From positions 11,421-75,420 of the forward strand of contig CAZOBJ010000001.1 of NCBI GenBank assembly GCA_964577825.1: a DNA stretch of 64,000 bases, read 5' to 3'. Below, piece by piece: positions 5,357 through 64,000 of the stretch. A program made the position numbers and the translations under genes. How positions within the stretch are numbered: the first letter of the stretch is position 1; each line of letters opens with the position of its first letter. The notes under the pieces were generated by a model. It searched no databases. It saw nothing but the letters and a program-made list of their open reading frames with translations, and had not been told where the DNA came from. This DNA comes from an uncultured Planctomycetales bacterium (GTDB lineage: Bacteria; Planctomycetota; SZUA-567; JAFGNG01).

Positions 5357-7393
5357 TCACGTGCAGGGCTCCTCCAGGATGCGGACGCCGAAGGGCTCCA
5401 GTTCGAGCCCGCCCGTGCGCGGTTCCCCGGTCAGCATGTCGCGGTACTCGCCGTCGCCCAGCTCGATGCGTGCCGCCTCCCGGTTGTGGTTGAGCACGAA
5501 GAGGAAGCTGCGGTCCTTCTGGCTGCGGCGGCGCACCTCCACGCCCTCCGGGCTCTCCAGGACGCCTGAGATGCCGCAGTCCGCGCAGAGCCGCGCGTAG
5601 AAGTTGGACAGGAAGTCCTCCCCGACGTCGGCCCCAACGTAGTAGGCCAGACCGTCTCCGAGGCGGTTCTCGGTCACAACGGGCCGGCCCGCGTAGAAGT
5701 CGTCGCCGTAAGCGGCGAGCACGCGGGCGGTCTCGGCGTGGGCGAGTTCGCAGAGCCGGCGGCACTCGTAGGCGCCCTCGCACGGCCCGAAATCGGCCTG
5801 CATGACGACCTGGTTGGTCCAGTCCTCGAAGAGGGCGTCAATTTCCTCGACCCAGACGCCGAGCGTCCGGCGGAGCGCGCCCGGATAGCCGCCCAGGTAG
5901 GCCAGGTCGTGCTCGTCCACCCAGCCGGTCAAGAAGGTGGCGACGAAGCGCCCGCCGGACTCGACGAATTGCTCGATCCGCTCCGCCCATTCGCGGCGGA
6001 CCGAGTAGAGCATCGGCGCGATGACCAGGTCGTAACCGGACAGGTCCGCCCCGGCGTCGATCACGTGAACCGGCACGTTCCGCTCCCAGAGGGTGCGGTA
6101 GTGCTTGAAGGCGGTCTCGCGGTAGCGCTTCTCGCGGATCGGCCCGGCGGTGGCGTCGAGGGTCCACCAGTTCTCCCAGTCGAAGATGAGGGCGACGCGC
6201 GCCTCCACGCCGGAGCCGAGGACGCCGTCTTCCAGCCGCTCCAGCTCTGCGCCGAGCCGGGACACCTCGGCGAAAACGCGCGTGTTCTCGTGACCGGCGT
6301 GGGCGACGACGGCGCCGTGGAGCTTCTCGCACCCGCCCCGGCCGCGCCTCCACTGGAAATACATGACCGAGTCCGCGCCGTGCGCCACGGCCAGGTGGCT
6401 CCACAGCCGCATCTGGCCGGGCCTCTTCAGGGCGTTGACGGTCTGCCAGTTCTGGGAACTCGGCGTCTGCTCCATCAGCATGAACGGCTGCCCGCCGCCC
6501 TTCAGCCCGTACATCAGGTCGTGCTGGAAGGCCACGTCGGCGACGTCGCCCCGGATGCTGGGGTAGCAGTCCCACGAGACGACGTCCACGTGGGGCGCCC
6601 ACTTGTGGTAGTCCAGGGTGTAGTGGAAGCCCATCATGTTGGTCGTCACGGGCACCTCGGGGGTGACCTCGCGCAACACGCCGGCCTCGTTCAGGAAGCA
6701 TTCGAGCAGGGCGTCGCTGCTGAAGCGCCGGTAGTCCACGTTCACGGCGGGGATGCTCCCCTCGCCGTTTTCGCGGGGGGGCTCCACCTGCGACCAGTCG
6801 GTGTAGGTGTGGCTCCAAAACGGCGTGTACCAGTTGCGGTTGAGTTCGTCGAGCGAGCCGTGCCGGCGCTTGAGCCACTGGCGGAAGGCTTCGGCGCAGT
6901 TCTCGCAGTAACAGGCCCCCGAGTACTCGTTCGAGACGTGCCAGAGCACCAGCGCGGGATGGTCCCTGTATCGCTCCGCCAGCTTGCGGGCGATCGTCGC
7001 ACATGCCCCGCGGTAGGCCGTGGAGTTCGGGCAGAAGTTGACCCTGTGACCGTGGCCTTTGCGGCGCCCGGACGCGTCCGAGCGCAGGACCTCCGGGTGC
7101 TGCTGCGAGAGCCACGCGGGGTGCGCGGCGCTCGGCGTGGCGAGGACGGCGTAGAGCCCGTTGTCGGCCAGCTTGTCCATGATGGTGTCGAGCCAGCCGA
7201 ACTCGAACGTGTCCGGCGCCGGCTGGAGGCTGACCCAACTGAACACGCCCACGGTGGCGACGTTGACGTTGGCCAGCTTCATGAGGCGCACGTCCTCGTC
7301 CCACACGTCGTCCGGCCACTGTTCGGGGTTGTAGTCACCCCCGTGGAAGAAGCGCGGCAGCCTCGTGCTGATGAGCGGGTGCATTCTCTCCAT
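5357..7393 (-). CDS. beta-galactosidase, glycoside hydrolase family 42
   Basis: GH42 hallmarks are present (FFHGGDYNPEQWP, WHVSNEY, zinc site CYCENC). The start is set to ATG 7391-7393 (MERMHPLI), preceded by GGAGAA. The 50 aa upstream in the ORF are not family-like. Confidence 0.9.
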   Translation of the reverse strand: MERMHPLISTRLPRFFHGGDYNPEQWPDDVWDEDVRLMKLANVNVATVGVFSWVSLQPAPDTFEFGWLDTIMDKLADNGLYAVLATPSAAHPAWLSQQHPEVLRSDASGRRKGHGHRVNFCPNSTAYRGACATIARKLAERYRDHPALVLWHVSNEYSGACYCENCAEAFRQWLKRRHGSLDELNRNWYTPFWSHTYTDWSQVEPPRENGEGSIPAVNVDYRRFSSDALLECFLNEAGVLREVTPEVPVTTNMMGFHYTLDYHKWAPHVDVVSWDCYPSIRGDVADVAFQHDLMYGLKGGGQPFMLMEQTPSSQNWQTVNALKRPGQMRLWSHLAVAHGADSVMYFQWRRGRGGCEKLHGAVVAHAGHENTRVFAEVSRLGAELERLEDGVLGSGVEARVALIFDWENWWTLDATAGPIREKRYRETAFKHYRTLWERNVPVHVIDAGADLSGYDLVIAPMLYSVRREWAERIEQFVESGGRFVATFLTGWVDEHDLAYLGGYPGALRRTLGVWVEEIDALFEDWTNQVVMQADFGPCEGAYECRRLCELAHAETARVLAAYGDDFYAGRPVVTENRLGDGLAYYVGADVGEDFLSNFYARLCADCGISGVLESPEGVEVRRRSQKDRSFLFVLNHNREAARIELGDGEYRDMLTGEPRTGGLELEPFGVRILEEPCT

Positions 7394-7465
7394 CGCATTT
7401 CTCCGGTCTTGAGTGTGAAGGGGGGAAGTATAACGCTCGCGCGGCCTGCCGGCAAAGGGACTTCC

Positions 7466-7494
7466 TTGCGCGGCCACAGGCGGTTTGTTATAGT
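7466..7494 (+). promoter_or_regulatory. putative promoter of the NDK-like gene
   Basis: TTGCGC (7466-7471), a 17-nt spacer, then TATAGT (7489-7494), about 48 nt upstream of ATG 7542. Confidence 0.3.
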
Positions 7495-7541
7495 GCAGCG
7501 GCGATGTTTCTGGACGGTCCTGCGCGAGGGGGCTTCTGTCC

Positions 7542-8978
7542 ATGTCCGAAGAGGCGGAACTGGCCTACGCGCTTGTAACGCCCTACACCCTGCACAAGAG
7601 CCGTACGGGCGGCATACTGGCTCGCCTGCTCTGGGCGAACGTCCGTCTGGTCGCCGCCAGGATGTACGCTCCCCGGCCCGGAAGCGGGTTCATCGAGGAA
7701 TACTGCGACGCCATCTACGACCCGGACGAGCGGGACATCCCCCTCCGTTACCAGAAGCTGCTGATCGAATACGTCCTGGAGAACTTTGGCAAGCCCAACG
7801 CGCGGGGCATATCCAACCGCCTGGCCGTCCTGATCTTCCGCGGGCCGAATGCCCTGCACGACATCGTGGAAGCCGTCGGCCACGTCAGTCAGCGCGTCAA
7901 GGGGGACACCGTCCGCGGCACGTACGGCGACTACTTCCGGGCGAAGCGTGAGGACGTTGCGGATGACCCGGGTTATCGGGCGCGCAAGGGCCTGCTGGAC
8001 CGGTACGCGAGGCTGCGGGACGTTGACCCGGACGAGCCGACCGACGATTTCTTCGAGCCAGCCGTGCTGACCGGCGTCACGCCGAAGATGAACGAAGCCC
8101 ACCTTAAGGTGTTCCGCAAGTACGCGTACAGCGACGGGGGTTTTGTGCTGGACGCGCTGGACGGAGGGGCCGCGCAGGACGTGGAGCACTCCCTCGTGGT
8201 GCTCAAACCGGAGATATTCCGCAATCGCAACCCCTTGCCCGGGAACCTGGTGGACTTCTTTGCCCGGTCCGGGATGTTCATTACCGCAACGAAGGTTCTC
8301 GAACTGAGCGTGGCGGAGGCCAAGCAGTTCTACAGCCTGAAACTGGACCAGTTCCGCGAGCAACTCAAGGGGATGGTCGCGGACAGGGCGCGCCAGATCG
8401 TCGCCAGGGCGCGGCTGCTGGCCCGGCAGGGAGTCGAGCGCATGGGGGCCGGCACCGAGGCCGCCTTCGCGCCGCAGAACGCCCTGACCGCGGCGCAGGA
8501 GGCCGAAGGCATCTTCTGCGGCGAGGCCGGCCCCGGCGACGTGAAGCCAGCCGTCGTCGCGCGTATCTATGATGAGCTGCGCGCCAGACTGACGGACCTG
8601 GACCCGCCCGACTCTCTCTACGACGAGTTGGCCGAAGAGCTGAAGGACCTCAACGGACGCGCTGAGTTCGACGAGTTGATCCGTTACATGACCGGCAAAG
8701 ACCCCCACAGCGGCAAGCCCATCGAAGCCGGCCGAGAAACGCATTGCATGGCCCTGCTGTACTCGGGGCGGAATGCACTATCCGCCACCCGCAAGCGGCT
8801 CAAGGAGCTGCGGGAGGTTTACGGGCAGAACCTGTTGCAGAATCGGGCGCACGCGAGCGACCCGGAGGAGAACCCGCTGAAGGAGATGGAGGTGCTCGGC
8901 ATGCCCACCTCGCCGCACGGGGAGGGCAGGCCCTGTGACCTGGAACAGGTGGTCAACGAGTTCTACCCCCCGGAGTAA
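7542..8978 (+). CDS. tandem nucleoside-diphosphate-kinase-like domain protein
   Basis: The N-terminal half resembles an NDK fold (AYALVTPYTLHKSRTGGILARLL...DTVRGTYG). A second NDK-like unit starts at EHSLVVLKPEIFRN and ends with the active-site motif NRAHASD (the NxxH[GA]SD pattern). About 120 aa of charged, helical sequence is inserted in between. Confidence 0.6.
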   Translation: MSEEAELAYALVTPYTLHKSRTGGILARLLWANVRLVAARMYAPRPGSGFIEEYCDAIYDPDERDIPLRYQKLLIEYVLENFGKPNARGISNRLAVLIFRGPNALHDIVEAVGHVSQRVKGDTVRGTYGDYFRAKREDVADDPGYRARKGLLDRYARLRDVDPDEPTDDFFEPAVLTGVTPKMNEAHLKVFRKYAYSDGGFVLDALDGGAAQDVEHSLVVLKPEIFRNRNPLPGNLVDFFARSGMFITATKVLELSVAEAKQFYSLKLDQFREQLKGMVADRARQIVARARLLARQGVERMGAGTEAAFAPQNALTAAQEAEGIFCGEAGPGDVKPAVVARIYDELRARLTDLDPPDSLYDELAEELKDLNGRAEFDELIRYMTGKDPHSGKPIEAGRETHCMALLYSGRNALSATRKRLKELREVYGQNLLQNRAHASDPEENPLKEMEVLGMPTSPHGEGRPCDLEQVVNEFYPPE

Positions 8979-8983
8979 GGGCC

Positions 8984-9625
8984 GTGCTTGTCATCCGCCT
9001 GGTGCTGGGGCCTCTGGAGACGAACGTGTACCTGCTCAGGGACCCTGGCAGCGGGGCGGGAGCCGTCGTGGACCCGGCCGGCGAGGCCGGCCGCATCGTC
9101 GAGAGATGCCGCGAGGAGCGCCTGACGCCGGAGTACATCGTCAATACGCACGCACACGTGGATCACGTCGGCGCGAACGCCGGCCTGAAGGAGGCGTTCC
9201 CGGCGGCTGTGCTCTGCATGGGTGAAGAGGAGGCCGGCACACTCGCCGACCCGGTGGCGAACCTTTCCGCCGCTTTCGGGCTGGCGGCGGGCGGGCCGGA
9301 GCCCGATCTCTGGCTCAGGGAGGGCGACGAGCTTCGTTTCGGCACGGTCGTGATGGAGGTTCTGGAGACGCCGGGGCACACCCCCGGCGGGATAAGCCTG
9401 CTGGCGCGGGGCGGGGGCATCCCGCAGCTCTTCTGCGGCGATGTCCTGTTCCGCCGCGGCGTCGGCAGGACGGACCTGCCGGGCGGCGATTGGGCGGCCG
9501 TGGTCGATTCGATCCGTCGGAAGCTCTTCACGCTGCCCGATGGCACGGTCGTCTGGCCGGGACACGGTGAGAGGACGACAATCGGCGAAGAGAAACGGGA
9601 GAACCCGTTTGTGGCGGCGCTTTGA
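8984..9625 (+). CDS. MBL-fold metallo-hydrolase (hydroxyacylglutathione hydrolase-like)
   Basis: The HxHxDH metal motif is present (NTHAHVDHVGAN), followed later by PGHTPG. At 213 aa the size is typical of GloB-like enzymes. Confidence 0.85.
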   Translation: MLVIRLVLGPLETNVYLLRDPGSGAGAVVDPAGEAGRIVERCREERLTPEYIVNTHAHVDHVGANAGLKEAFPAAVLCMGEEEAGTLADPVANLSAAFGLAAGGPEPDLWLREGDELRFGTVVMEVLETPGHTPGGISLLARGGGIPQLFCGDVLFRRGVGRTDLPGGDWAAVVDSIRRKLFTLPDGTVVWPGHGERTTIGEEKRENPFVAAL

Positions 9626-9657
9626 CGCAGCTTCAGGCAGCGACCAGGAGGACGGCA

Positions 9658-11259
9658 GTGGCGAGGATCCAGACAGCTCTGATAACAGTCGCGGATAAGA
9701 CCGGGGTCGCGCAGTTTGCGCAGCGACTCGTCGGGCTCGGAGTTGAACTCCTTGCCACGGGAGGGACGGCTCGCTTGCTGCGTGAGAGAGAGCTCGAGGT
9801 GACCGACGTCAGCGAGTACACGGGCTTCCCGGAGATACTGGACGGCGGCCTGCGCGTGCTTCACCCCAAGGTGACCGGCGGCGTTCTGGCCCGGCGCGAT
9901 CAGCGGCACCTGCGCGAGTTGGAGAAGCTTGGCATCCGCACGATCGACATGGTGGTCGTGAACCTCTATCCGCACGTCAGCCTGATATCGCAGCCCGGCG
10001 TCCGGCAGATGCAGGCGATTGAGGACATCGACATCGCCGGGCCGACCGTCGTCCGGGCGGCCGCCAAGAACTACACCCACGTGGCAGTCGTCACCAACCC
10101 GGCCACGTACGACAGCGTGGCGGAGGAACTTGAGAGCAACGACGTGCACCTCTCCGAGGAGACGCACTTCAAGCTCGCCCTGGACGCGTTCCGCCACACT
10201 GCTCACTATGACGCGGCCATCGCGAGGTACTTCGCCAGCATCCACGGCGAGGTGGGGACCGCCCTGGAGCAGATCACGCTGGAATACGACAAGAGGCAGG
10301 ACCTGCGCTACGGCGAGAACCCGCACCAGCGGGCCGCCTTCTACGTCGAGCAGGACGTCAAGGAGCCCTCGGTGAGCGGCGCCAGGCAGGTCGCCGGCCC
10401 CGTGCTCTCCTTCAGCAACGCCCTGGACCTCGATGCCGGGATCGAGCTAGCCAAGGAGTTCGAGCGCCCGGTCGCAGTGATCGTCAAGCTGGCGAATCCG
10501 TGCGGCGTTGCAGTCGCGAAGTCGCTCACCCGGGCCTACGAGAAGGCCTATCTGGCGGACCCGCGGGCCGCGTTTGGCAGCGCCGTTGTGCTCAATCGCC
10601 CTCTTGACGCGGACACGGCCCGGGCCGTCGCCGGCCCCGTAGTTGAGGTGGATGGCAAACCCGTGCCCCGTTTGGTGGAGTGCCTGGCTGCTCCGGGCTT
10701 CGAGGACGGGGCGCTGGACGCCCTCCGCGAGAAGGCTGACTGGGCAGCCCGTACGCGCCTGCTCGAGGTCGGGCCTCTGGGGCCGCGCGCCCGCGACGAG
10801 GCCAGCAAGGACTTCAAGCGCGTCACTGGCGGCGTGCTGCTGCAGGATCGCGACCTGATTGGGCTCGATCCCGGGGGGCTGAAGGTTGTTACGGGAACCG
10901 CCCCCAGCGCGCAGCAGATGCGGAATCTGAAGTTCGCCTGGCTCTGCTGCAAGCACGTCACGTCCAACGCCATCGTCGTGGCCAAGGGCAAGACGCTGGT
11001 GGGCGTCGGCGCGGGGCAGATGAGTCGCCTCGACGCAACCGTCCTGGCCCTGACCAAGGCCGGCGCAAGGGCGCGCGGAGCCGTGCTGGCCAGCGACGGC
11101 TTCTTCCGGTTCCCCGACGCCGTCCAGCGTGCGGCCGAAGCGGGCGTGGCGGCGATCATCCAGTCCGGGGGGGCGGAGCACGACCAGGCAGTCATTGAAG
11201 CCGCCGAACAGGCCGGGATCGCCATGGTCTTCACCGGCATCCGGCACTTCCGCCATTGA
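9658..11259 (+). CDS. purH: bifunctional AICAR transformylase / IMP cyclohydrolase
   Basis: The protein is PurH-like over its full length (ALITVADKTGVAQFAQRLVGLGVELLATGGTARLL, ...MVFTGIRHFRH at the C-terminus). The start is placed at GTG 9658, 6 nt after AGGAGG. The ORF opens at TTG 9622. Confidence 0.93.
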   Translation: MARIQTALITVADKTGVAQFAQRLVGLGVELLATGGTARLLRERELEVTDVSEYTGFPEILDGGLRVLHPKVTGGVLARRDQRHLRELEKLGIRTIDMVVVNLYPHVSLISQPGVRQMQAIEDIDIAGPTVVRAAAKNYTHVAVVTNPATYDSVAEELESNDVHLSEETHFKLALDAFRHTAHYDAAIARYFASIHGEVGTALEQITLEYDKRQDLRYGENPHQRAAFYVEQDVKEPSVSGARQVAGPVLSFSNALDLDAGIELAKEFERPVAVIVKLANPCGVAVAKSLTRAYEKAYLADPRAAFGSAVVLNRPLDADTARAVAGPVVEVDGKPVPRLVECLAAPGFEDGALDALREKADWAARTRLLEVGPLGPRARDEASKDFKRVTGGVLLQDRDLIGLDPGGLKVVTGTAPSAQQMRNLKFAWLCCKHVTSNAIVVAKGKTLVGVGAGQMSRLDATVLALTKAGARARGAVLASDGFFRFPDAVQRAAEAGVAAIIQSGGAEHDQAVIEAAEQAGIAMVFTGIRHFRH

Positions 11260-11272
11260 GAGGTCGCCTGCC

Positions 11273-12433
11273 ATGGCTCAGCCGGCGGAAGAGCCGCAGG
11301 TGCTGCACCTTGACGAACAGCGGGGCTGGCGCGGCGGCGAGCAGCAGATGCTGTACCTGGCCAAAGGGCTGCGGGCCCGCGCCGTTCGCACCGCCGCTCT
11401 CGTGCAGCCGGGCTGCGCCGCTGCGGAGCGCGTCCGCGCCAGCGGCGTTGACGTTCTCCGAACCCGCATGGCAGGGGAGGTGGACCTGCCGGCGGCCTGG
11501 CACATCGCCCGGCTGGCGCGGTCCAGTGGGTTCAACATCCTGCATTCCCACACGGCTCACACGCACATGCTGGCGCTGCTCGCGGCCCGCATGAACGGCG
11601 GCCGGTGCAAGGTCGTCTCGCACCGCCGCATCGAGTACCCCGTCGGGCGGGCCTTCCTGGGCCTGGGCAGGGTCAAGTACCTCTTCGGCGTGGACGCCTA
11701 CGTCGCCATCAGCAACCGCGTCAAGGAGACCCTTCTGGAAGCCGGCGTGCCCGAGTGGCGGGTCTTCGTCGTGCGCAGCGCCACGGACCCGGAACGGTTC
11801 CTGCACGTCCGGCCGCGGGCCGGCCTGCGCGCCAGCCTGGGGGTCCCGGACGACGCCTTCGTCGTCGGCAACATCGCTGCGCTGGTGGGGCACAAGGACC
11901 ACCGCACGTTGCTGGAAGCCTGCCGCGTCGTGCGGGACAACATGCCCCAGACGTGGGTGGTCATTGTGGGCGACGGGCCGCTGCGCGAGGAAGTGCGTGC
12001 CAAGGCGCGCAGCATGCACATGGACGACCGCCTCGTGATGACCGGGTTTCGGGACGACGTGCCGGAGCTTATCCGCGCCTTCGACGTGTTCGCCCTGAGC
12101 AGCTCGGAAGAAGGCCTCTGCAGCACGCTGCTGGAGGTGGCTGCCAGCGGCTGTCCCATCGTGGCCACGGACGCGGGCGGCGTCCGGGAGGCCGTGCTTC
12201 CCGATCGGACCGGCGTCATCGTTCCCACGCGCAGTCCGCGCGCCCTGGCTCAGGGCGTGCTCCAGCTGGCAGCGCACCCGCAGCAGGCCCGGCAGATGGC
12301 GGCCCGCGGCAGGGAGCGGGTCCGAACGCACTTCAACACCGACGTCCTGGCCGAGCGAACGCTGGAGGTCTACCGGCGTGTGCTGGCCGGCCGGGTGGGG
12401 CCGCAGTGGGAGGCAGGGCTCTGCGAGGACTGA
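11273..12433 (+). CDS. glycosyltransferase family 4 (GT-B, RfaB-like)
   Basis: The C-terminal GT1/GT4 motif is present (FALSSSEEGLCSTLLEVAASGCPIVATDAGGVRE). The start is set to ATG 11273 (MAQPAEEPQV), because the upstream part of ORF 11129.. overlaps purH. Confidence 0.85.
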   Translation: MAQPAEEPQVLHLDEQRGWRGGEQQMLYLAKGLRARAVRTAALVQPGCAAAERVRASGVDVLRTRMAGEVDLPAAWHIARLARSSGFNILHSHTAHTHMLALLAARMNGGRCKVVSHRRIEYPVGRAFLGLGRVKYLFGVDAYVAISNRVKETLLEAGVPEWRVFVVRSATDPERFLHVRPRAGLRASLGVPDDAFVVGNIAALVGHKDHRTLLEACRVVRDNMPQTWVVIVGDGPLREEVRAKARSMHMDDRLVMTGFRDDVPELIRAFDVFALSSSEEGLCSTLLEVAASGCPIVATDAGGVREAVLPDRTGVIVPTRSPRALAQGVLQLAAHPQQARQMAARGRERVRTHFNTDVLAERTLEVYRRVLAGRVGPQWEAGLCED

Positions 12434-12440
12434 ATGGGCC

Positions 12441-14006
12441 TCACTGGCCGTCGAACGTCCGCCCGGACGTGTGTGCCAGATACACTATGCAGCGCTCGCA
12501 CCCGCGGCTTGTCCGGCAGCAATCACGGTAAATCTGGTGCAGTCCCTGCTGGCGCCGCGTGGAGCCGACCACCTTTCGCGCTTCCTCACGGCTGCCGAAG
12601 ATCACCTGGTTCATGCGGCGCGTGACGGCGTTGCCCGGGCGGGGTGGCATACGCTGCCACACGAGCTGCATGCGCTCGGCAGTCTCGGTGTCGCCCTCCG
12701 CCCGCGCGTGGGCCAGCAGCATCGGCAGCAGCACGTCCACCAGGATGCTTGTGGCGCGCTGACGGCCAACGAGCGCTCGGGGGTTGCCGAACTTCTTCGC
12801 GCCGAAGCCGTAGCGATGCGACCAGTAGGGATGGTCGAGCTGGAGGAAGGTGTCCAGCAAGGCCCCCCGAAGCGCCGTGTCGAGACGCCCCCTTCCCGTG
12901 GGACGAGAGACGCCGGCGACGCGGCGCAGGAGGTGCGAGAAAAGCCCTCCGTGCAGGTGTCCGGCGTAGAGGCGCGCCAGGGCCGCGATCCGCCTCGTGG
13001 GATAGTTGGCGGGCCTGGTGCCGGCGAAGTGCCAGTGTTCCGGGCCGAGATTGACCTGGGTCGGCGGCGCGCCGAAGTCCCGCCACCTGCGCCGCAACTC
13101 ACCCACATGGGCGACCGTCTCAGGGTCCGCGTCTTCCGGCTCCACTGCTGCCAGGAAGCCGGCCACGGAGAAGAGGGCCGCCTCCAGAATCAGGGACTTC
13201 TCCTCGAACGTGGCGTCGGCCGGCACGCGTTCTCGCAGCAGGTGCGCCGGCAGCAGGCCGGCGAGCTGCATGAAGGGCATCCGGTTGTTCTTGTAGCCCA
13301 GCGCCTCGGCTACTCGCTCGTAGAGCAGTTGCTCCCGGGGGTGGTTCTCGAACAGCCCTGCGCACGTCGCCGCCCGCGTGAAGAGACGATGGTCCCCCGC
13401 CGCGTCCAGCAGTCCGCCGAGCCACTCGGGGCCGATCTCACCGGACGCGTACGCGGGTCCGCAGTACCTGCCCTCGACGGCCGCGCGTGCGTAGAGGGGA
13501 GTCTCATCCTCCGGACCGATGACCTCGACCAGCTCTTCGAGGTCCTCCTCGATCACGTTGCTCAGGGTGAGCTGGGGTATCTGCTTGCCGTCCTGGGCGA
13601 GGACGCACGGCTCGTCCCGGTCGTTCCACATGACGACGTGGAGCGCCACGTCGTTGTATTCGGGCTGTCTGTCGTGGCCGTGCGCGTGCCAGGAGGAGGC
13701 GAGGGTGTGTACTTCGACGTCGCCGACGACCCTGCCGGTGCCCTCGAGGACGAACTCCGCCCGGATGAAATCCGGTCCGCCCTCGACGTTCCACCAGCCG
13801 GGGGAGAGCACCTCCATGCGCCGCCCGTCGTCGGTGGTCAGTCCCTCCGAGGGGAAGTGGCTGCCGAACCAGACGCACCGCACGATCTCTTCGCGCACGC
13901 TCCGGCCGGCCAGGCCGTAGGTGGACTGCTTCTCGCCGAGTTCGGCGGCGAACTGCTCCCGCAGTTGCCCGTACACGTCGCAGAAGTCGTTCCGCTTCTC
14001 AGGCAT
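12441..14006 (-). CDS. DUF2851 family protein
   Basis: The N-terminal region matches the DUF2851 pattern (VWFGSHF...GWWNVEGGPDFIRAEF...GDVEVHTLASSWHAHGHDRQPEYNDVALHVVMWND). Confidence 0.8.
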   Translation of the reverse strand: MPEKRNDFCDVYGQLREQFAAELGEKQSTYGLAGRSVREEIVRCVWFGSHFPSEGLTTDDGRRMEVLSPGWWNVEGGPDFIRAEFVLEGTGRVVGDVEVHTLASSWHAHGHDRQPEYNDVALHVVMWNDRDEPCVLAQDGKQIPQLTLSNVIEEDLEELVEVIGPEDETPLYARAAVEGRYCGPAYASGEIGPEWLGGLLDAAGDHRLFTRAATCAGLFENHPREQLLYERVAEALGYKNNRMPFMQLAGLLPAHLLRERVPADATFEEKSLILEAALFSVAGFLAAVEPEDADPETVAHVGELRRRWRDFGAPPTQVNLGPEHWHFAGTRPANYPTRRIAALARLYAGHLHGGLFSHLLRRVAGVSRPTGRGRLDTALRGALLDTFLQLDHPYWSHRYGFGAKKFGNPRALVGRQRATSILVDVLLPMLLAHARAEGDTETAERMQLVWQRMPPRPGNAVTRRMNQVIFGSREEARKVVGSTRRQQGLHQIYRDCCRTSRGCERCIVYLAHTSGRTFDGQ

Positions 14007-60944: not shown

Positions 60945-62075
60945 ATGAAGATAACCGGCATCCGCACGTTCCTCATCGGCAATCCGTGGAAGAACTGGGT
61001 GATCGCGCGCGTCGAGACGGACGAGGGCCTCAGCGGCCTCGGCGAGGCCACGTCCCCGACGGCCGGGGCGCTGGCGGCCGAACTGAAGGAACTGAGCCGC
61101 TTCGTCGTCGGCATGGACCCCCGCGAGCCCGTGCGCGTCTATGAGGCGATGTACAAGGGCGTCTTCCTGCGCAACACCCCCGGCATCTGCGCCATCGAGA
61201 TCGCCTGCTGGGACATCCTGGGCAAGAGCCTCGGTGCGCCGCTCTGGCGGCTTCTCGGCGGCAGGGCGCAGGGCCGGCTCCGCGCCTACGCCAACGGCTG
61301 GTACAAGTGCCCCCGCGAGCCCGCCGCTTTCGCCGAACGCGCCGTCGCCGTGAAGGAGATGGGCTACACGGCCCTGAAGTTCGACCCCTTCGGCGCGGCC
61401 TACCTCGACCTCGACACGGCCGAACAGAAGCTCTCGCTCTCGCTGGTGCGGGCCGTGCGCGACGCCGTGGGGGAGGGCGTGGACCTGCTGATCGAGGGGC
61501 ACGACCGCTTCAGCACGAGCACGGCGGTCCGGGTCGGCCGGGCGTTGGAGGAGTTCCGTCCGGCGTGGTTCGAGACCCCCGTGCACTCGGCGGATCTCAA
61601 GGCCACGGTCGAGGTTGCGCGGGCGATCCCGGTGCCGGTGGCCAGCGGGGAGCGCCTCTCGCGTCTGAGCGAGTTCGCCGACCTGCTCGCGCCGAGGGCC
61701 GTTTCCATCGTCCAGCCGGAGCCGTTGCGTTGCGGGGGCGTGGGCGGCACGGTGCGGGTGGCGGCGCTGGCCCGGGCGCACGGCGCGCTGGTCGCCTGCC
61801 ACCAGGCGCAGAGCCCCCTGAGCACCGCCCTGAACGCCCACCTGCACGCTGCCATGCCGAACTTCATGATCCAGGAGTGCTTCGACGACTTCCTGGAGCC
61901 CTGGGCGCGGGACCTGTTCCCCGGCGTGCCGCGCGTGGTGGACGGCTGCATCGAGCCGCCCGACGCATCCGGCATCGGCGTCGAGCTGAACGAGGAAGAG
62001 GCCGCCCGGCACCCGTATGGCGAGGACAAGTTCATCCGCCTCTTCGAGCCCGGCTGGGAGCGCCGCCGGCGCTAG
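60945..62075 (+). CDS. mandelate racemase/muconate lactonizing enzyme-family acid-sugar dehydratase (second enolase-superfamily member)
   Basis: The start is MKITGIRTFLIGNPWKNWVIARVETDEGLSGLGEAT. Metal-ligand regions are present (LIEGHDRF, SGERL, IVQPEPLRCGG). The substrate cannot be assigned by eye. Confidence 0.8.
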   Translation: MKITGIRTFLIGNPWKNWVIARVETDEGLSGLGEATSPTAGALAAELKELSRFVVGMDPREPVRVYEAMYKGVFLRNTPGICAIEIACWDILGKSLGAPLWRLLGGRAQGRLRAYANGWYKCPREPAAFAERAVAVKEMGYTALKFDPFGAAYLDLDTAEQKLSLSLVRAVRDAVGEGVDLLIEGHDRFSTSTAVRVGRALEEFRPAWFETPVHSADLKATVEVARAIPVPVASGERLSRLSEFADLLAPRAVSIVQPEPLRCGGVGGTVRVAALARAHGALVACHQAQSPLSTALNAHLHAAMPNFMIQECFDDFLEPWARDLFPGVPRVVDGCIEPPDASGIGVELNEEEAARHPYGEDKFIRLFEPGWERRRR

Positions 62076-62225
62076 TGGCCCGTTCAACCGATAACCTTGC
62101 ACTCCGGGCCCACCCCCGGCGAGACGCCGGGGGCTACCCATAGGGGTAGGCGGGGCGTCTCGCCCCGCTGCCTGGTTCAGACATAACTCGCAAAACGCAA
62201 GGTGACTTCCTCATCAGGCCACTAG
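62072..62225. repeat. palindromic/structured element bounded by 9-bp inverted repeats (possible second MITE-like element)
   Basis: CTAGTGGCC (62072-62080) and GGCCACTAG (62217-62225) are exact inverted repeats, each containing TA. A bipartite hairpin lies inside: GGCGAGACGCC at 62118-62128 pairs with GGCGTCTCGCC at 62154-62164, and an inner CTACCC/GGGTAG stem spans 62134-62149. The left end resembles the 44863 MITE end in 12 of 16 positions. Confidence 0.4.
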
Positions 62226-62319
62226 GCGACGGCCAGGGCACAACGCCCGGAGCCGCCGCTCCCGCTGCGGGCCCTGTCCGGGCGGACAATTTGTCAAAGA
62301 GCATCACCCCACCACAGGC

Positions 62320-62351
62320 CCCAGGGATGCCGTTCCTGGGAGTTTTGTTTT
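62320..62351 (+). terminator. intrinsic-terminator-like hairpin plus T-tract
   Basis: CCCAGG (62320-62325) pairs with CCTGGG (62335-62340), and the stem is extendable by A-U/G-U pairs. It is followed by AG-TTTTGTTTT (62343-62351). T-runs like this are rare in this G+C-rich sequence. Confidence 0.45.
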
Positions 62352-62532
62352 GTCAGGAGCCTTTACTGGGGGGTGACAAGACGGACATGCCAAGCCGCGC
62401 CCAAAGGCGCGCGGGGTGGATAGTCGACGGTTGATAGTTGACAGTTAACGACGCGTGTGCCCTGATCGTTCTCGAAGGATGTTGTTTGTTTCTTGTTGCT
62501 TGCTGTCTGTTCTCTCGTTCCGCTGCGTTGTG

Positions 62533-62559
62533 CCTTCGTGTTCTTCGTGTCCTTCGTGG
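62533..62559. repeat. 3 x 9-bp tandem repeat (YCTTCGTGK) inside an 82-nt A-free tract
   Basis: CCTTCGTGT / TCTTCGTGT / CCTTCGTGG are contiguous at 62533-62559. The plus strand has no A at all from 62480 to 62561. Confidence 0.8.
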
Positions 62560-62710
62560 TGAAAGCCCTTGCCGTTCCATTCCGCATTCCCCGATCCACA
62601 TTCGCATCGCCGCTGCCTTCCCTCAATCCTCATGCCTGCCGTACGGCGGACCGTGGCCTACCGTTCCCGTTGCTGCCTTTCGTCGTTACTTCGGACTTCA
62701 GCCTTCTGCC

Positions 62711-62746
62711 TTCGCACTTCCGCACGGAACGAGTATACTCGTTCCG
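62711..62746 (+). promoter_or_regulatory. 22-bp perfect palindrome (candidate operator) overlapping a promoter-like TTCGCA-17-TATACT
   Basis: CGGAACGAGTATACTCGTTCCG (62725-62746) equals its own reverse complement. Its centre TATACT (62734-62739) lies 17 nt downstream of TTCGCA (62711-62716). Confidence 0.4.
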
Positions 62747-62824
62747 CGCGGCTCATGTGTCCGATCTGGGCGCTACTGACCGATCTTTTCGTTACTGACG
62801 GATCCGGGCGCCCGGGCGGAGCCA

Positions 62825-62853
62825 TTGACTTCCACATTTCGTGCTATTAGTAT
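62825..62853 (+). promoter_or_regulatory. putative promoter of the S24-peptidase-like gene
   Basis: TTGACT (62825-62830), a 17-nt spacer, then TAGTAT (62848-62853). It lies 30 nt upstream of ATG 62884, which is preceded by AGGAGA. Confidence 0.45.
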
Positions 62854-62883
62854 CGTTGCCGTATCAGACAGGAGAAAGGGAAC

Positions 62884-63211
62884 ATGTGCCCTCGCCCCAA
62901 GCCGTCAAACCGCCCCCTCGCAACTTTCAACTGCCGTCAACTGGAGTTCAACTCCGCCTTCTGTGCGCAGGCCGGGTTTGAGGAACGGTGTGTGGAGTAC
63001 GCCACGCCGTCCCTGGGTGAGACCAGCCCGGGACGGAGACATCGTCGTGGTTGAGACATGGGACGGGCGGATCCTGACCAAGCGGTTCTACCGGCGGGGG
63101 GGCAACGTCACACTGACGTCCGTCAACCCCGTGGATCGCCAGGAGCCGATCCACCTCAAGTCGAAGCAGGTCAAGGAAGTTCGCGTCGTGGTGGGAGCGC
63201 TCTTCGAGTAG
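62884..63211 (+). pseudogene. stand-alone S24 (LexA/UmuD-type) peptidase domain gene, apparently frameshifted
   Basis: ATG 62884 opens a 56-aa frame (…AQAGFEERCVEYATPSLGETSPG…) that stops at 63052-63054. The overlapping ORF 62825..63211 supplies the typical S24 C-terminus (RDGDIVVVETWDGRILTKRFYRRGGNVTLTSVNP...VVGALFE). The two join at the CCCGGG run, 63027-63032. Confidence 0.45.
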
Positions 63212-63242
63212 AGAAACGTCGCTCTAACTGGAGGGAAGGGCT

Positions 63243-64000
63243 ATGCTAGGCCGATGGGCATGCGTATGTATGATGGTCGTGGTCTTCGGTTCCGTCGCTG
63301 CAAAGCGTGTGCGGAGTGCTGAGGAAGGGACGGCGTCCGTGGAGGAGCTGAAAGCGCAAGTCGCGCAACTTGAGGCACGGGTCGCCGAACTGGAGACTGC
63401 GGTGGCAAAGGCCGAGGAGGAGGCCAAGGAGGTTCGTAAGCGCAACGGGGGGTTGCTCCTGGAAGTCCGGCGCCTCGGAAGGCTTTGTCGAGAAGCAGGC
63501 GTACAGACCGAGGAGAAGAAGCAACCGGCGCCCAGACCTCCAGCCCAAGAGGACTCTACCTCGCCAGACAAATCGCCATGGGATGGCTTCCGGGGCCTGA
63601 AATGGGGACAGCAGCTCGACCAATGCAAGGGCATGGGCCTGTGGCTGTCCGACAAGGATAGCCCACTATTGTCCAAGAGCGATAGCAGACTATACCATCG
63701 CGGGGAGCAGATGTCCATTGGCAATGCCAAACTCACCAGGGTGCTATATGGTTTCTATAGGGGTAAGTTCTATAGGTACGTGGTGATCACTAGTGGCTAC
63801 AGCAATTTCACTGCCCTGAAGTTGGCGGTCGAAGCGCGCTATGGCCGCGGCAAGCAGGAGAATGAGACCATCGATGAGTGGCGCTGGACCGGCAATACCA
63901 GCAGCGGCCAGATGATCGTCATGACGCTGGAATACAACGAGTTCGACGAAGAAGCTCTCTGGTATGCGTTACATGTGCCGACCCTCCAACAGGAACGGCG
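63243..64000 (+). CDS. secreted coiled-coil protein, function unknown (partial, runs off window end)
   Basis: This feature is absent from the ORF track because it has no stop inside the window. ATG 63243 follows GGAGGG, and I read the frame as open to base 64000. It has a signal-like N-terminus (MLGRWACVCMMVVVFGSVAA), a coiled coil (VEELKAQVAQLEARVAELETAVAKAEEEAKE), a Pro-rich linker, and then a globular domain (RVLYGFYRGKFYRYVVI...). Confidence 0.6.
   Translation, partial: MLGRWACVCMMVVVFGSVAAKRVRSAEEGTASVEELKAQVAQLEARVAELETAVAKAEEEAKEVRKRNGGLLLEVRRLGRLCREAGVQTEEKKQPAPRPPAQEDSTSPDKSPWDGFRGLKWGQQLDQCKGMGLWLSDKDSPLLSKSDSRLYHRGEQMSIGNAKLTRVLYGFYRGKFYRYVVITSGYSNFTALKLAVEARYGRGKQENETIDEWRWTGNTSSGQMIVMTLEYNEFDEEALWYALHVPTLQQER

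Follow-up and report, generated by a model that had tools for sequence, protein, structure and literature searches.

The gene described here lies in a 64,000-nucleotide stretch of DNA from an uncultured Planctomycetales bacterium (assembly GCA_964577825.1, contig CAZOBJ010000001.1, positions 11,421–75,420), referred to below as the window. It occupies positions 7542..8978 of the forward strand, starts with ATG and encodes a two-unit protein of 478 residues resembling nucleoside-diphosphate kinase (NDK); coordinates and length are exactly those given in an initial annotation made from the letters of the window. Unit 1 (residues 1–208, 7542..8165, forward strand, with the fold proper between about residues 6 and 195) is an NDK-fold pseudo-unit devoid of the catalytic histidine. 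Unit 2 (residues 214–455) is an NDK unit that retains its catalytic residues and is divided by a helical insert (residues 266–370, 8337..8651, forward strand) into an N-terminal half (residues 214–265, 8181..8336, forward strand) and a C-terminal half (residues 371–455, 8652..8906, forward strand).

The G+C content of the window is 60–72%, and about 67% in the region of the gene. Long spurious open reading frames (ORFs) are plentiful on the other frames and strands, many of them overlapping the gene, and proof that the gene is real was therefore needed from outside the window. Such a setting would suit an artefact: two adjacent ndk-like genes might have been fused by mis-assembly or a wrong gene call, or the ORF might be open by chance in DNA so rich in G+C. 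This reading, to which we attach a vanishingly small probability, is excluded by three results: the identical 478-residue protein is encoded on ten independent public contigs (JGI, ENA, Logan and NCBI); when GTDB was scanned with one genome per species, at least 578 genomes encoded relatives, full-length and alike in start and two-unit layout; and AlphaFold2 (AF2) yields one compact and confident fold (predicted TM-score, pTM, 0.85). Homologues of 476–490 residues form about 97 clusters at 50–73% identity, all from Planctomycetota or 'Candidatus Brocadiia' metagenome-assembled genomes (MAGs), and are named 'hypothetical protein' or 'nucleoside diphosphate kinase' at source. One relative (P0094; 455 residues, on a 2.4 kb ENA contig) carries IF3 domains (PF00707 and PF05198) besides the NDK; most probably the gene call or the assembly joined it to a neighbouring infC, and the architecture is not a real one.

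The AF2 model of the whole protein was built with 81 homologues and has a predicted local distance difference test (pLDDT) score of 85.9. The full strand and helix order of the ferredoxin-like NDK fold (β-α-β-β-α-β, with the αA–α2 hairpin and the Kpn loop) is present in both units, as judged from the AF2 model and from Foldseek. The top PDB matches of the full model in Foldseek are NME7 structures, aligned over about 470 columns with E values down to 9e-7 at 8–14% identity (TM-score 0.28–0.50). The initial annotation had read the ORF as a pseudo-NDK followed by a split NDK; the model topology, the NME7 match and the 50 listed structural matches of unit 1, all of which are NDKs, bear this out, and Pfam, profile and Foldseek searches each return the NDK fold whose absence would have spoken against it.

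Unit 2 starts at EHSLVVLKPEIF, located at residue 214 as the initial annotation had it. The Pfam NDK profile (PF00334), whose gathering score is 27 bits, matches the whole protein with 44.1 bits (E = 2.4e-11). This match falls into two stretches, both in unit 2, of which the better one runs over residues 215–269 (profile positions 1–53). The second half of the profile and of the fold aligns to residues 371–452. The N-terminal half, delimited by the Pfam profile and an alignment to Escherichia coli NDK, comprises β1, α1, β2 and αA and carries the catalytic lysine K222 and Y264. The C-terminal half, delimited by phmmer and BLAST alignments to NDKs and by invariant residues, comprises α2 (F376), β3, α3 (R417), a shortened Kpn loop (R424), β4 (N434-R-A-H437-A-S439-D440) and α4 (E448); the NRAHASD motif that had been claimed for this unit thus lies at residues 434–440. 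Each half can be aligned in the proper register with NDKs of known structure and with the E. coli enzyme, whose residue numbering is approximate here.

Across 85 genome-derived sequences of about 30% identity overall, K222, Y264, R417, R424, N434, H437, S439, D440 and E448 are each at least 97% conserved, and F376 is invariant in the set of 81 sequences. Unit 2 therefore has the same fold as canonical bacterial Ndk (EC 2.7.4.6; PF00334; E. coli Ndk, PDB entry 2HUR) and its complete catalytic set in the canonical order: the lysine after β1, the tyrosine of the αA 'FY' motif, the base-stacking phenylalanine, two arginines, the asparagine, the histidine of N-x-x-H-[GA]-S-D with its His-x-Ser-Asp context, and the supporting glutamate.

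The canonical enzyme is a single uninterrupted domain of about 140–150 residues (about 140 in the bacterial enzyme), whereas the window protein has 478 residues and two units per chain, of which unit 1 is without the catalytic histidine and lysine, and unit 2 departs from the canonical form at three places. The largest departure is the insert of 105 residues at the αA/α2 turn. An extra loop of about 17 residues before β3 (residues 384–401, 8691..8744, forward strand) is missing from canonical NDK in the alignment to E. coli NDK; it is likewise missing from three outlying long forms (P0089, P0090 and P0092; 50–54% identity), which still show the long insert in the hairpin and the deletion in the Kpn loop, and the pre-β3 loop is therefore dispensable. 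The third departure is a deletion of ten residues in the Kpn loop, placed between L420 and K421 (8799..8804, forward strand) by alignments to E. coli NDK and to the shorter family members introduced below. It takes out the GxTxPxxAxxG segment including the canonical threonine, so that the intact loop with a conserved threonine (G-x-T-x-P) seen in canonical Ndk is gone. The gap is present in all long forms, whereas all short forms keep the segment as LGxTDPxKAxxG. The pre-β3 loop, the Kpn-loop deletion and an insert of 29 residues in unit 1 were all unmentioned in the initial annotation.

The helical insert, delimited by the gap against E. coli NDK and by the AF2 model, joins directly after Y264 and ends before G371-R-A-E-F376. 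It had been described as a charged helical insert of about 120 residues splitting the unit; the split and the helical, charged character hold, and the length against E. coli NDK is about 105 residues. Charged residues make up 31% of it and alanine 17%, with a net charge of −5. AF2 places helices at residues 265–274, 276–301, 305–308, 311–325, 336–349 and 357–384, with pLDDT values of 82–96 for the blocks, and the parts of unit 2 on either side of the insert together make up the full series of strands and helices. On this model the insert is a folded, helical protrusion from an NDK fold that is itself intact, and neither a disordered linker nor a plain coiled coil: of the 'inserted coiled coil' proposed initially the helices are retained, but four to six of them form what appears to be a folded subdomain. 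Searches with the insert alone found no sequence relatives in Pfam or the PDB (SRP54_N at a sub-threshold E of 0.14; PDB noise at E of about 1), and assignment to a known domain or coiled-coil family was rejected on these grounds. Its distal part (residues 291–352, about 62 residues, 8412..8597, forward strand) belongs to the long form only, being a gap in over half of the 85 family members and in all aligned short forms. The proximal hairpin helices, which are common to long and short forms, are conserved like the cores (71% and 64% identity). Among long forms, mean identity is about 70% in the cores, 42% in residues 291–352 and 29% in residues 138–166 of unit 1, so that the segments found only in the long form are the least conserved.

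Unit 1 was recognized from AF2 topology, Foldseek, profile searches and hhalign. Its strings of fold signature quoted in the initial annotation, TVRGTYG among them, are present, and its AF2 topology is β1-α1-β2-hairpin-β3-α3-loop-β4-α4. Modelled alone, the unit has a pLDDT of 78 and a pTM of 0.81, and all 50 listed Foldseek matches of this model are NDK structures (target-normalized TM-score 0.46–0.73, mostly 0.6–0.7). Sequence similarity is more remote. Against PF00334 unit 1 alone scores 13.1 bits (E = 0.089), single-sequence BLASTP gave noise (E = 0.025 against unit 2 and 0.25 against E. coli NDK), and a first hhalign run with 81 sequences reached a probability of 46%; profiles with wider sampling were therefore needed. 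A profile of 28 unit 1 sequences run against all PDB sequences gave 33 matches, 30 of them NDKs that aligned in register (best E = 7e-4), and hhalign of this profile against E. coli NDK gave a probability of 72.5% (E = 3e-5, 115 columns). With the 85 genome-derived sequences, unit 1 aligned to unit 2 with a probability of 93.8% (E = 1.7e-7), over a stretch that includes the unusual pre-β3 loop, which is common to both units. These alignments are suggestive of an origin of unit 1 by internal duplication within the protein. The insert of 29 residues that sets the long form apart here (residues 138–166, 7953..8039, forward strand) is a gap in all short forms and is modelled as two short helices (residues 143–154 and 156–160).

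The N-x-x-H-[GA]-S-D motif is not present in unit 1, as had been noted initially, and no histidine column of the unit reaches 50% conservation among the 85 family members. Thr13 stands in place of the catalytic lysine after β1, and the lysine, asparagine and histidine equivalents of canonical Ndk are all without conservation. To judge from these sequences, unit 1 cannot form a phospho-histidine. Pinning the equivalent of the histidine by sequence was unreliable, since the alignment past the RGTYGD motif is not trustworthy; from the AF2 strand at residues 170–172 and a manual register, the invariant F171-E172-P173 probably takes the place of the x-H-[GA] motif. The unit is nevertheless as rich as unit 2 in residues that are at least 97% conserved across the 85 genomes, with about 25 of them: P14, Y15, K19, S20, R21, T22, G23, G24, R28, Y54, Y77, R93, G101, A104, G113, G121, R125, G129, D130, F171, E172, P173, D198, G199 and G200. 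This pattern indicates strong selection on polar and basic residues.

The architecture is not confined to the window. The relatives found in the GTDB scan lie in the Planctomycetota–Verrucomicrobiota–Chlamydiota (PVC) superphylum and fall into two size classes. The long form accounts for seven of the best 80 GTDB loci (55–68% identity to the window protein); the remaining loci encode a short form of about 385–400 residues (roughly 390), at 28–34% identity in tblastn or 38–43% over aligned columns. The labels of genomes with the short form include Ca. Brocadia, Ca. Jettenia, Brocadiales, Phycisphaerae, Chthoniobacter, Limisphaerales/Limisphaera, Pedosphaera, other Verrucomicrobiota and one Kiritimatiellia, and examples such as MBI2560573.1 and MCX5673028.1 are automatically annotated as 'nucleoside-diphosphate kinase'. 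Two family members (GTDB loci L033 and L073) come from MAGs labelled Anaerolineales and Actinomycetota; because L073 has the same metallo-β-lactamase (MBL) neighbour as Planctomycetota loci, mis-binning or mis-classification is a more probable source of these labels than transfer.

Short forms share with the window protein the dead unit 1 with its signature (TPY, KSRTGG, SNR/xR, VRGTYGD, FEP and DGG), the same catalytic set in unit 2 and a unit 2 that is interrupted, by about 45 residues of hairpin extension and by the pre-β3 loop; those of Planctomycetota also share the downstream MBL gene. They differ in being without residues 138–166 and 291–352 and in having an intact Kpn loop, and they score 93–97 bits against the Pfam NDK profile, compared with 44.1 for the window protein. 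The features that define the two-unit family, a histidine-less N-terminal unit with KSRTGG, F-E-P and D-G-G followed by an NDK unit with an extended hairpin, are all found in the window protein, and the signature is invariant. The three markers of the long form (29 residues more in unit 1, 62 residues more at the hairpin tip and ten residues fewer in the Kpn loop) occur together when 21 long rows are compared with ten short rows, and the gap profile of the 85 genome-derived sequences agrees.

Searched at E ≤ 1e-3 against 1.84 billion clusters at 50% identity, the unit 1 profile recovered 399 representatives. In full-length matches (about 350–490 residues) the unit lies at the N-terminus, in a few cases offset by 30–150 residues; many shorter matches are probably fragments, and the long form corresponds to a single representative. 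On these comparisons the tandem and split architecture goes back to the ancestor of a PVC-wide family, and the window protein is the derived long form of a narrow Planctomycetota clade.

Among structurally similar proteins, NME7 (a group II NME microtubule inner protein with a DM10 domain and two tandem NDK domains; PDB entry 7UNG, chain 5) shares with the PVC protein the presence of tandem NDK folds in one chain. One of the two NDK domains of NME7 is reported to be inactive; in the PVC protein the dead unit comes first. The hairpin insertion is not a feature of NME7, which is eukaryotic and ciliary, whereas the PVC protein is bacterial and cytoplasmic. Sequence matches to NME7 are weak (phmmer E from 0.0015 to about 1.2) and, unlike in NME7, no Pfam match to DM10 was found, at the N-terminus or elsewhere. 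The simplest reading is that the two tandems are of independent origin. Pyrobaculum aerophilum NDK (PDB entry 1XQI; 195 residues, 182 in the chain), which is among both the sequence and the fold matches, is likewise longer than the usual 140 or so residues. Its extra length, which we take to be made up of lineage-specific insertions tolerated by the fold, is much smaller than that of the PVC protein, and the enzyme is a single domain.

We consider it fairly likely that the gene encodes a functional, lineage-specific two-unit NDK in which unit 2 is catalytic and the dead unit 1 serves as a built-in partner. This reading is favoured because the catalytic residues of unit 2 are invariant in a family of only about 30% overall identity, and we infer enzymatic activity from them. 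The housekeeping context of the gene and the size of the family, whose short forms have a full Kpn loop, also speak for it. Unit 2 would transfer the γ-phosphate of a nucleoside triphosphate (NTP) to a nucleoside diphosphate through a phospho-His437 intermediate, as canonical NDK does, using K222, Y264, F376, R417, R424, N434, S439 and E448. Unit 1, a diverged copy of the NDK fold probably derived by internal duplication, would take the part that the other subunit plays in the canonical NDK dimer, and its polar patch (K19, S20, R21, T22, R28, R93, R125, D130 and E172) suggests either ligand binding or contact with unit 2. The insert would extend the αA–α2 hairpin, which forms one wall of the nucleotide cleft. 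A version of the hairpin extension of about 45 residues is ancestral to the whole PVC family; the long-form clade added about 62 residues at its tip, and the changes of the long form most likely remodel access to the cleft, oligomer contacts or both.

Several results weigh against this reading. The window protein scores 34.5 bits with the NCBIfam ndk equivalog models (NF001908 and relatives), far below the cutoff of 155, and the short forms P0100 and P0121 also miss it (81–91 bits). The long form is without the Kpn-loop segment that bears the canonical phosphate-binding threonine, as aligned. AF2 confidence is lowest at residues 421–440 (pLDDT 58–60), where the shortened Kpn region and the catalytic strand lie, and thus around R424 to H437. 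Finally, the polar conservation of unit 1 exceeds what a passive structural partner or spacer needs and is the main unexplained feature of the protein.

An extended version of the two-unit kinase we regard as possible but rather doubtful. A large part of the PVC superphylum would use a single-chain 'heterodimeric' NDK in place of a canonical ndk, the dead unit, with a conserved ligand pocket of its own and with E172, controlling the active one allosterically, and the long form would be further remodelled in substrate access or oligomeric state. E172 would lie near the expected position of the phospho-histidine, and control would be exerted as in pseudokinase–kinase tandems.

The NDK-like gene heads a housekeeping cluster. 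Six nucleotides past its stop codon starts a gene for an MBL-fold hydrolase (8984..9625, forward strand; 213 residues, glyoxalase-II-like; Pfam Lactamase_B, E = 2.6e-31), whose nearest NCBIfam model is GloB, below cutoff. It is followed by purH, encoding 5-aminoimidazole-4-carboxamide ribonucleotide transformylase/inosine monophosphate cyclohydrolase (9622..11259, forward strand; Pfam AICARFT_IMPCHas, E = 1.8e-99, and MGS), which takes third place in the cluster of long-form genomes, and by a family 4 glycosyltransferase gene on the same strand. No terminator-like sites were found in 7300–12600. The MBL gene lies directly 3′ of the NDK-like gene in 31 of the best 80 GTDB loci, 30 of them with Planctomycetota-type labels; the loci span long-form genomes, anammox Brocadiales and Phycisphaerae (including L005, L006, L007, L009–L013 and L015–L017), and purH synteny is seen in L005, L009–L013 and L015. 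None of the Verrucomicrobiota loci among the best 80 has the MBL neighbour. In those inspected the neighbours vary by locus and, judged by the first residues of their ORFs alone, look housekeeping-like (PilT/GspE-like ATPases, TsaD-like and aspartate-aminotransferase-like proteins). The MBL gene could be a functional partner or merely old synteny. A role in a defence system was rejected, PADLOC giving no match for the NDK-like protein or its MBL neighbour. A tblastn search with E. coli NDK found no canonical ndk in the 64 kb window, and on the fetched GTDB loci its sole matches were the unit 2 regions of the family genes.

Upstream lies a divergent gene for a family 42 glycoside hydrolase (GH42) β-galactosidase (5357–7543, reverse strand), which is one open frame in the window. 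On the JGI contig it is called as two genes (148 and 517 residues) and on the ENA and Logan contigs as one gene of 678 residues (7818–9852 in L001 and 7816–9852 in L002, both on the reverse strand); the JGI assembly probably contains a frameshift or a sequencing error that accounts for the split call. All three long-form loci examined (L001, 14900–17152; L005, 10360–12528; L006, 11634–13449; all on the reverse strand) have, a few kb downstream of the NDK-like gene and opposite to it in strand, a DUF2851 gene with efp (elongation factor P) behind it. The pair is kept even in L006, where other genes replace purH and the glycosyltransferase gene. In the window at large, G+C falls to 0.604 at 62001–64000 compared with 0.63–0.72 elsewhere, no tRNA or tmRNA was found by ARAGORN, and no Rfam family reached its gathering score.

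Two other functions were weighed against a two-unit NDK. The protein might be a specialized phosphotransferase rather than a general NDK, keeping phospho-His437 while the remodelled cleft and a basic pocket in unit 1 select another donor or acceptor, such as a particular nucleotide, a sugar-nucleotide, polyphosphate or a protein, perhaps coupled to the hydrolase encoded 6 nt downstream. The MBL linkage in long-form, Brocadiales and Phycisphaerae loci would fit such a function, as would the many polar and basic residues among the 25 or so that are nearly invariant in unit 1, the loss of the Kpn-loop threonine from the long form and the failure of every family member to reach the ndk equivalog cutoffs. 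However, all residues by which canonical NDK contacts the nucleotide phosphates and the base are kept in unit 2, the linkage is missing from all Verrucomicrobiota loci, where the first ORF residues point to unrelated housekeeping neighbours, and the hydrolase itself is a generic glyoxalase-II-like protein under every equivalog cutoff. We judge this function unlikely.

The initial annotation had favoured a regulatory or scaffolding role over plain NTP homeostasis. In its full form this makes the protein non-catalytic, the tandem folds and the charged insert acting as an interaction platform like some ciliary group II NME proteins. Unit 1 is catalytically dead, the insert is without any enzymatic signature, the Kpn loop of the long form is truncated and the closest structures are NME7 microtubule inner proteins, all of which would suit a scaffold. 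Conservation of the full catalytic set of unit 2 across phyla is nevertheless hard to explain without catalysis. The NME7 match, at 8–14% identity, reflects the tandem arrangement, and Pfam revealed neither DM10 nor another interaction domain. The insert elaborates an ancestral PVC-wide hairpin and has its least constrained parts in the segments peculiar to the long form (42% identity in the distal part compared with about 70% in the cores). The gene context, with purH in the cluster, is biosynthetic. On this evidence the preference for a scaffold is not supported, and we regard a non-catalytic protein as improbable.

The two-unit NDK-like family of the PVC superphylum appears to be unnamed. 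No Pfam or NCBIfam model is specific to the family, its members bear automatic names ('nucleoside-diphosphate kinase' or 'hypothetical protein') while reaching no NCBIfam ndk cutoff, and no paper describing it was found; an architecture already named and characterized, which would have refuted the initial annotation, is thus not what the searches show. The enzymes treated in a 2026 paper on Waddlia, which has two ndk paralogues, are canonical and of 15–18 kDa. According to a review (PMC7554756), an NDK of a prokaryote consists of one domain of about 140 residues. Given that hundreds of genomes of Planctomycetota and Verrucomicrobiota encode simpler versions, the PVC proteins are a real but overlooked and uncharacterized variant of NDK and not a one-off oddity. 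Their chemistry is probably nothing unusual, and what makes them interesting is their architecture and evolution rather than a new kind of system.

For annotation, names given without a model of the family's own mean that metabolic reconstructions may mis-score the presence of NDK. A tandem of a dead and a live unit in hundreds of Planctomycetota and Verrucomicrobiota species, anammox bacteria included, breaks the single-domain picture of bacterial NDK. Such a conserved bacterial tandem would be an independent parallel to the multi-domain NME proteins of eukaryotes, and it could serve as a simple model system for how a phosphotransfer enzyme of great simplicity is tuned once it has acquired a pseudo-enzyme copy and an insertion in a hairpin.

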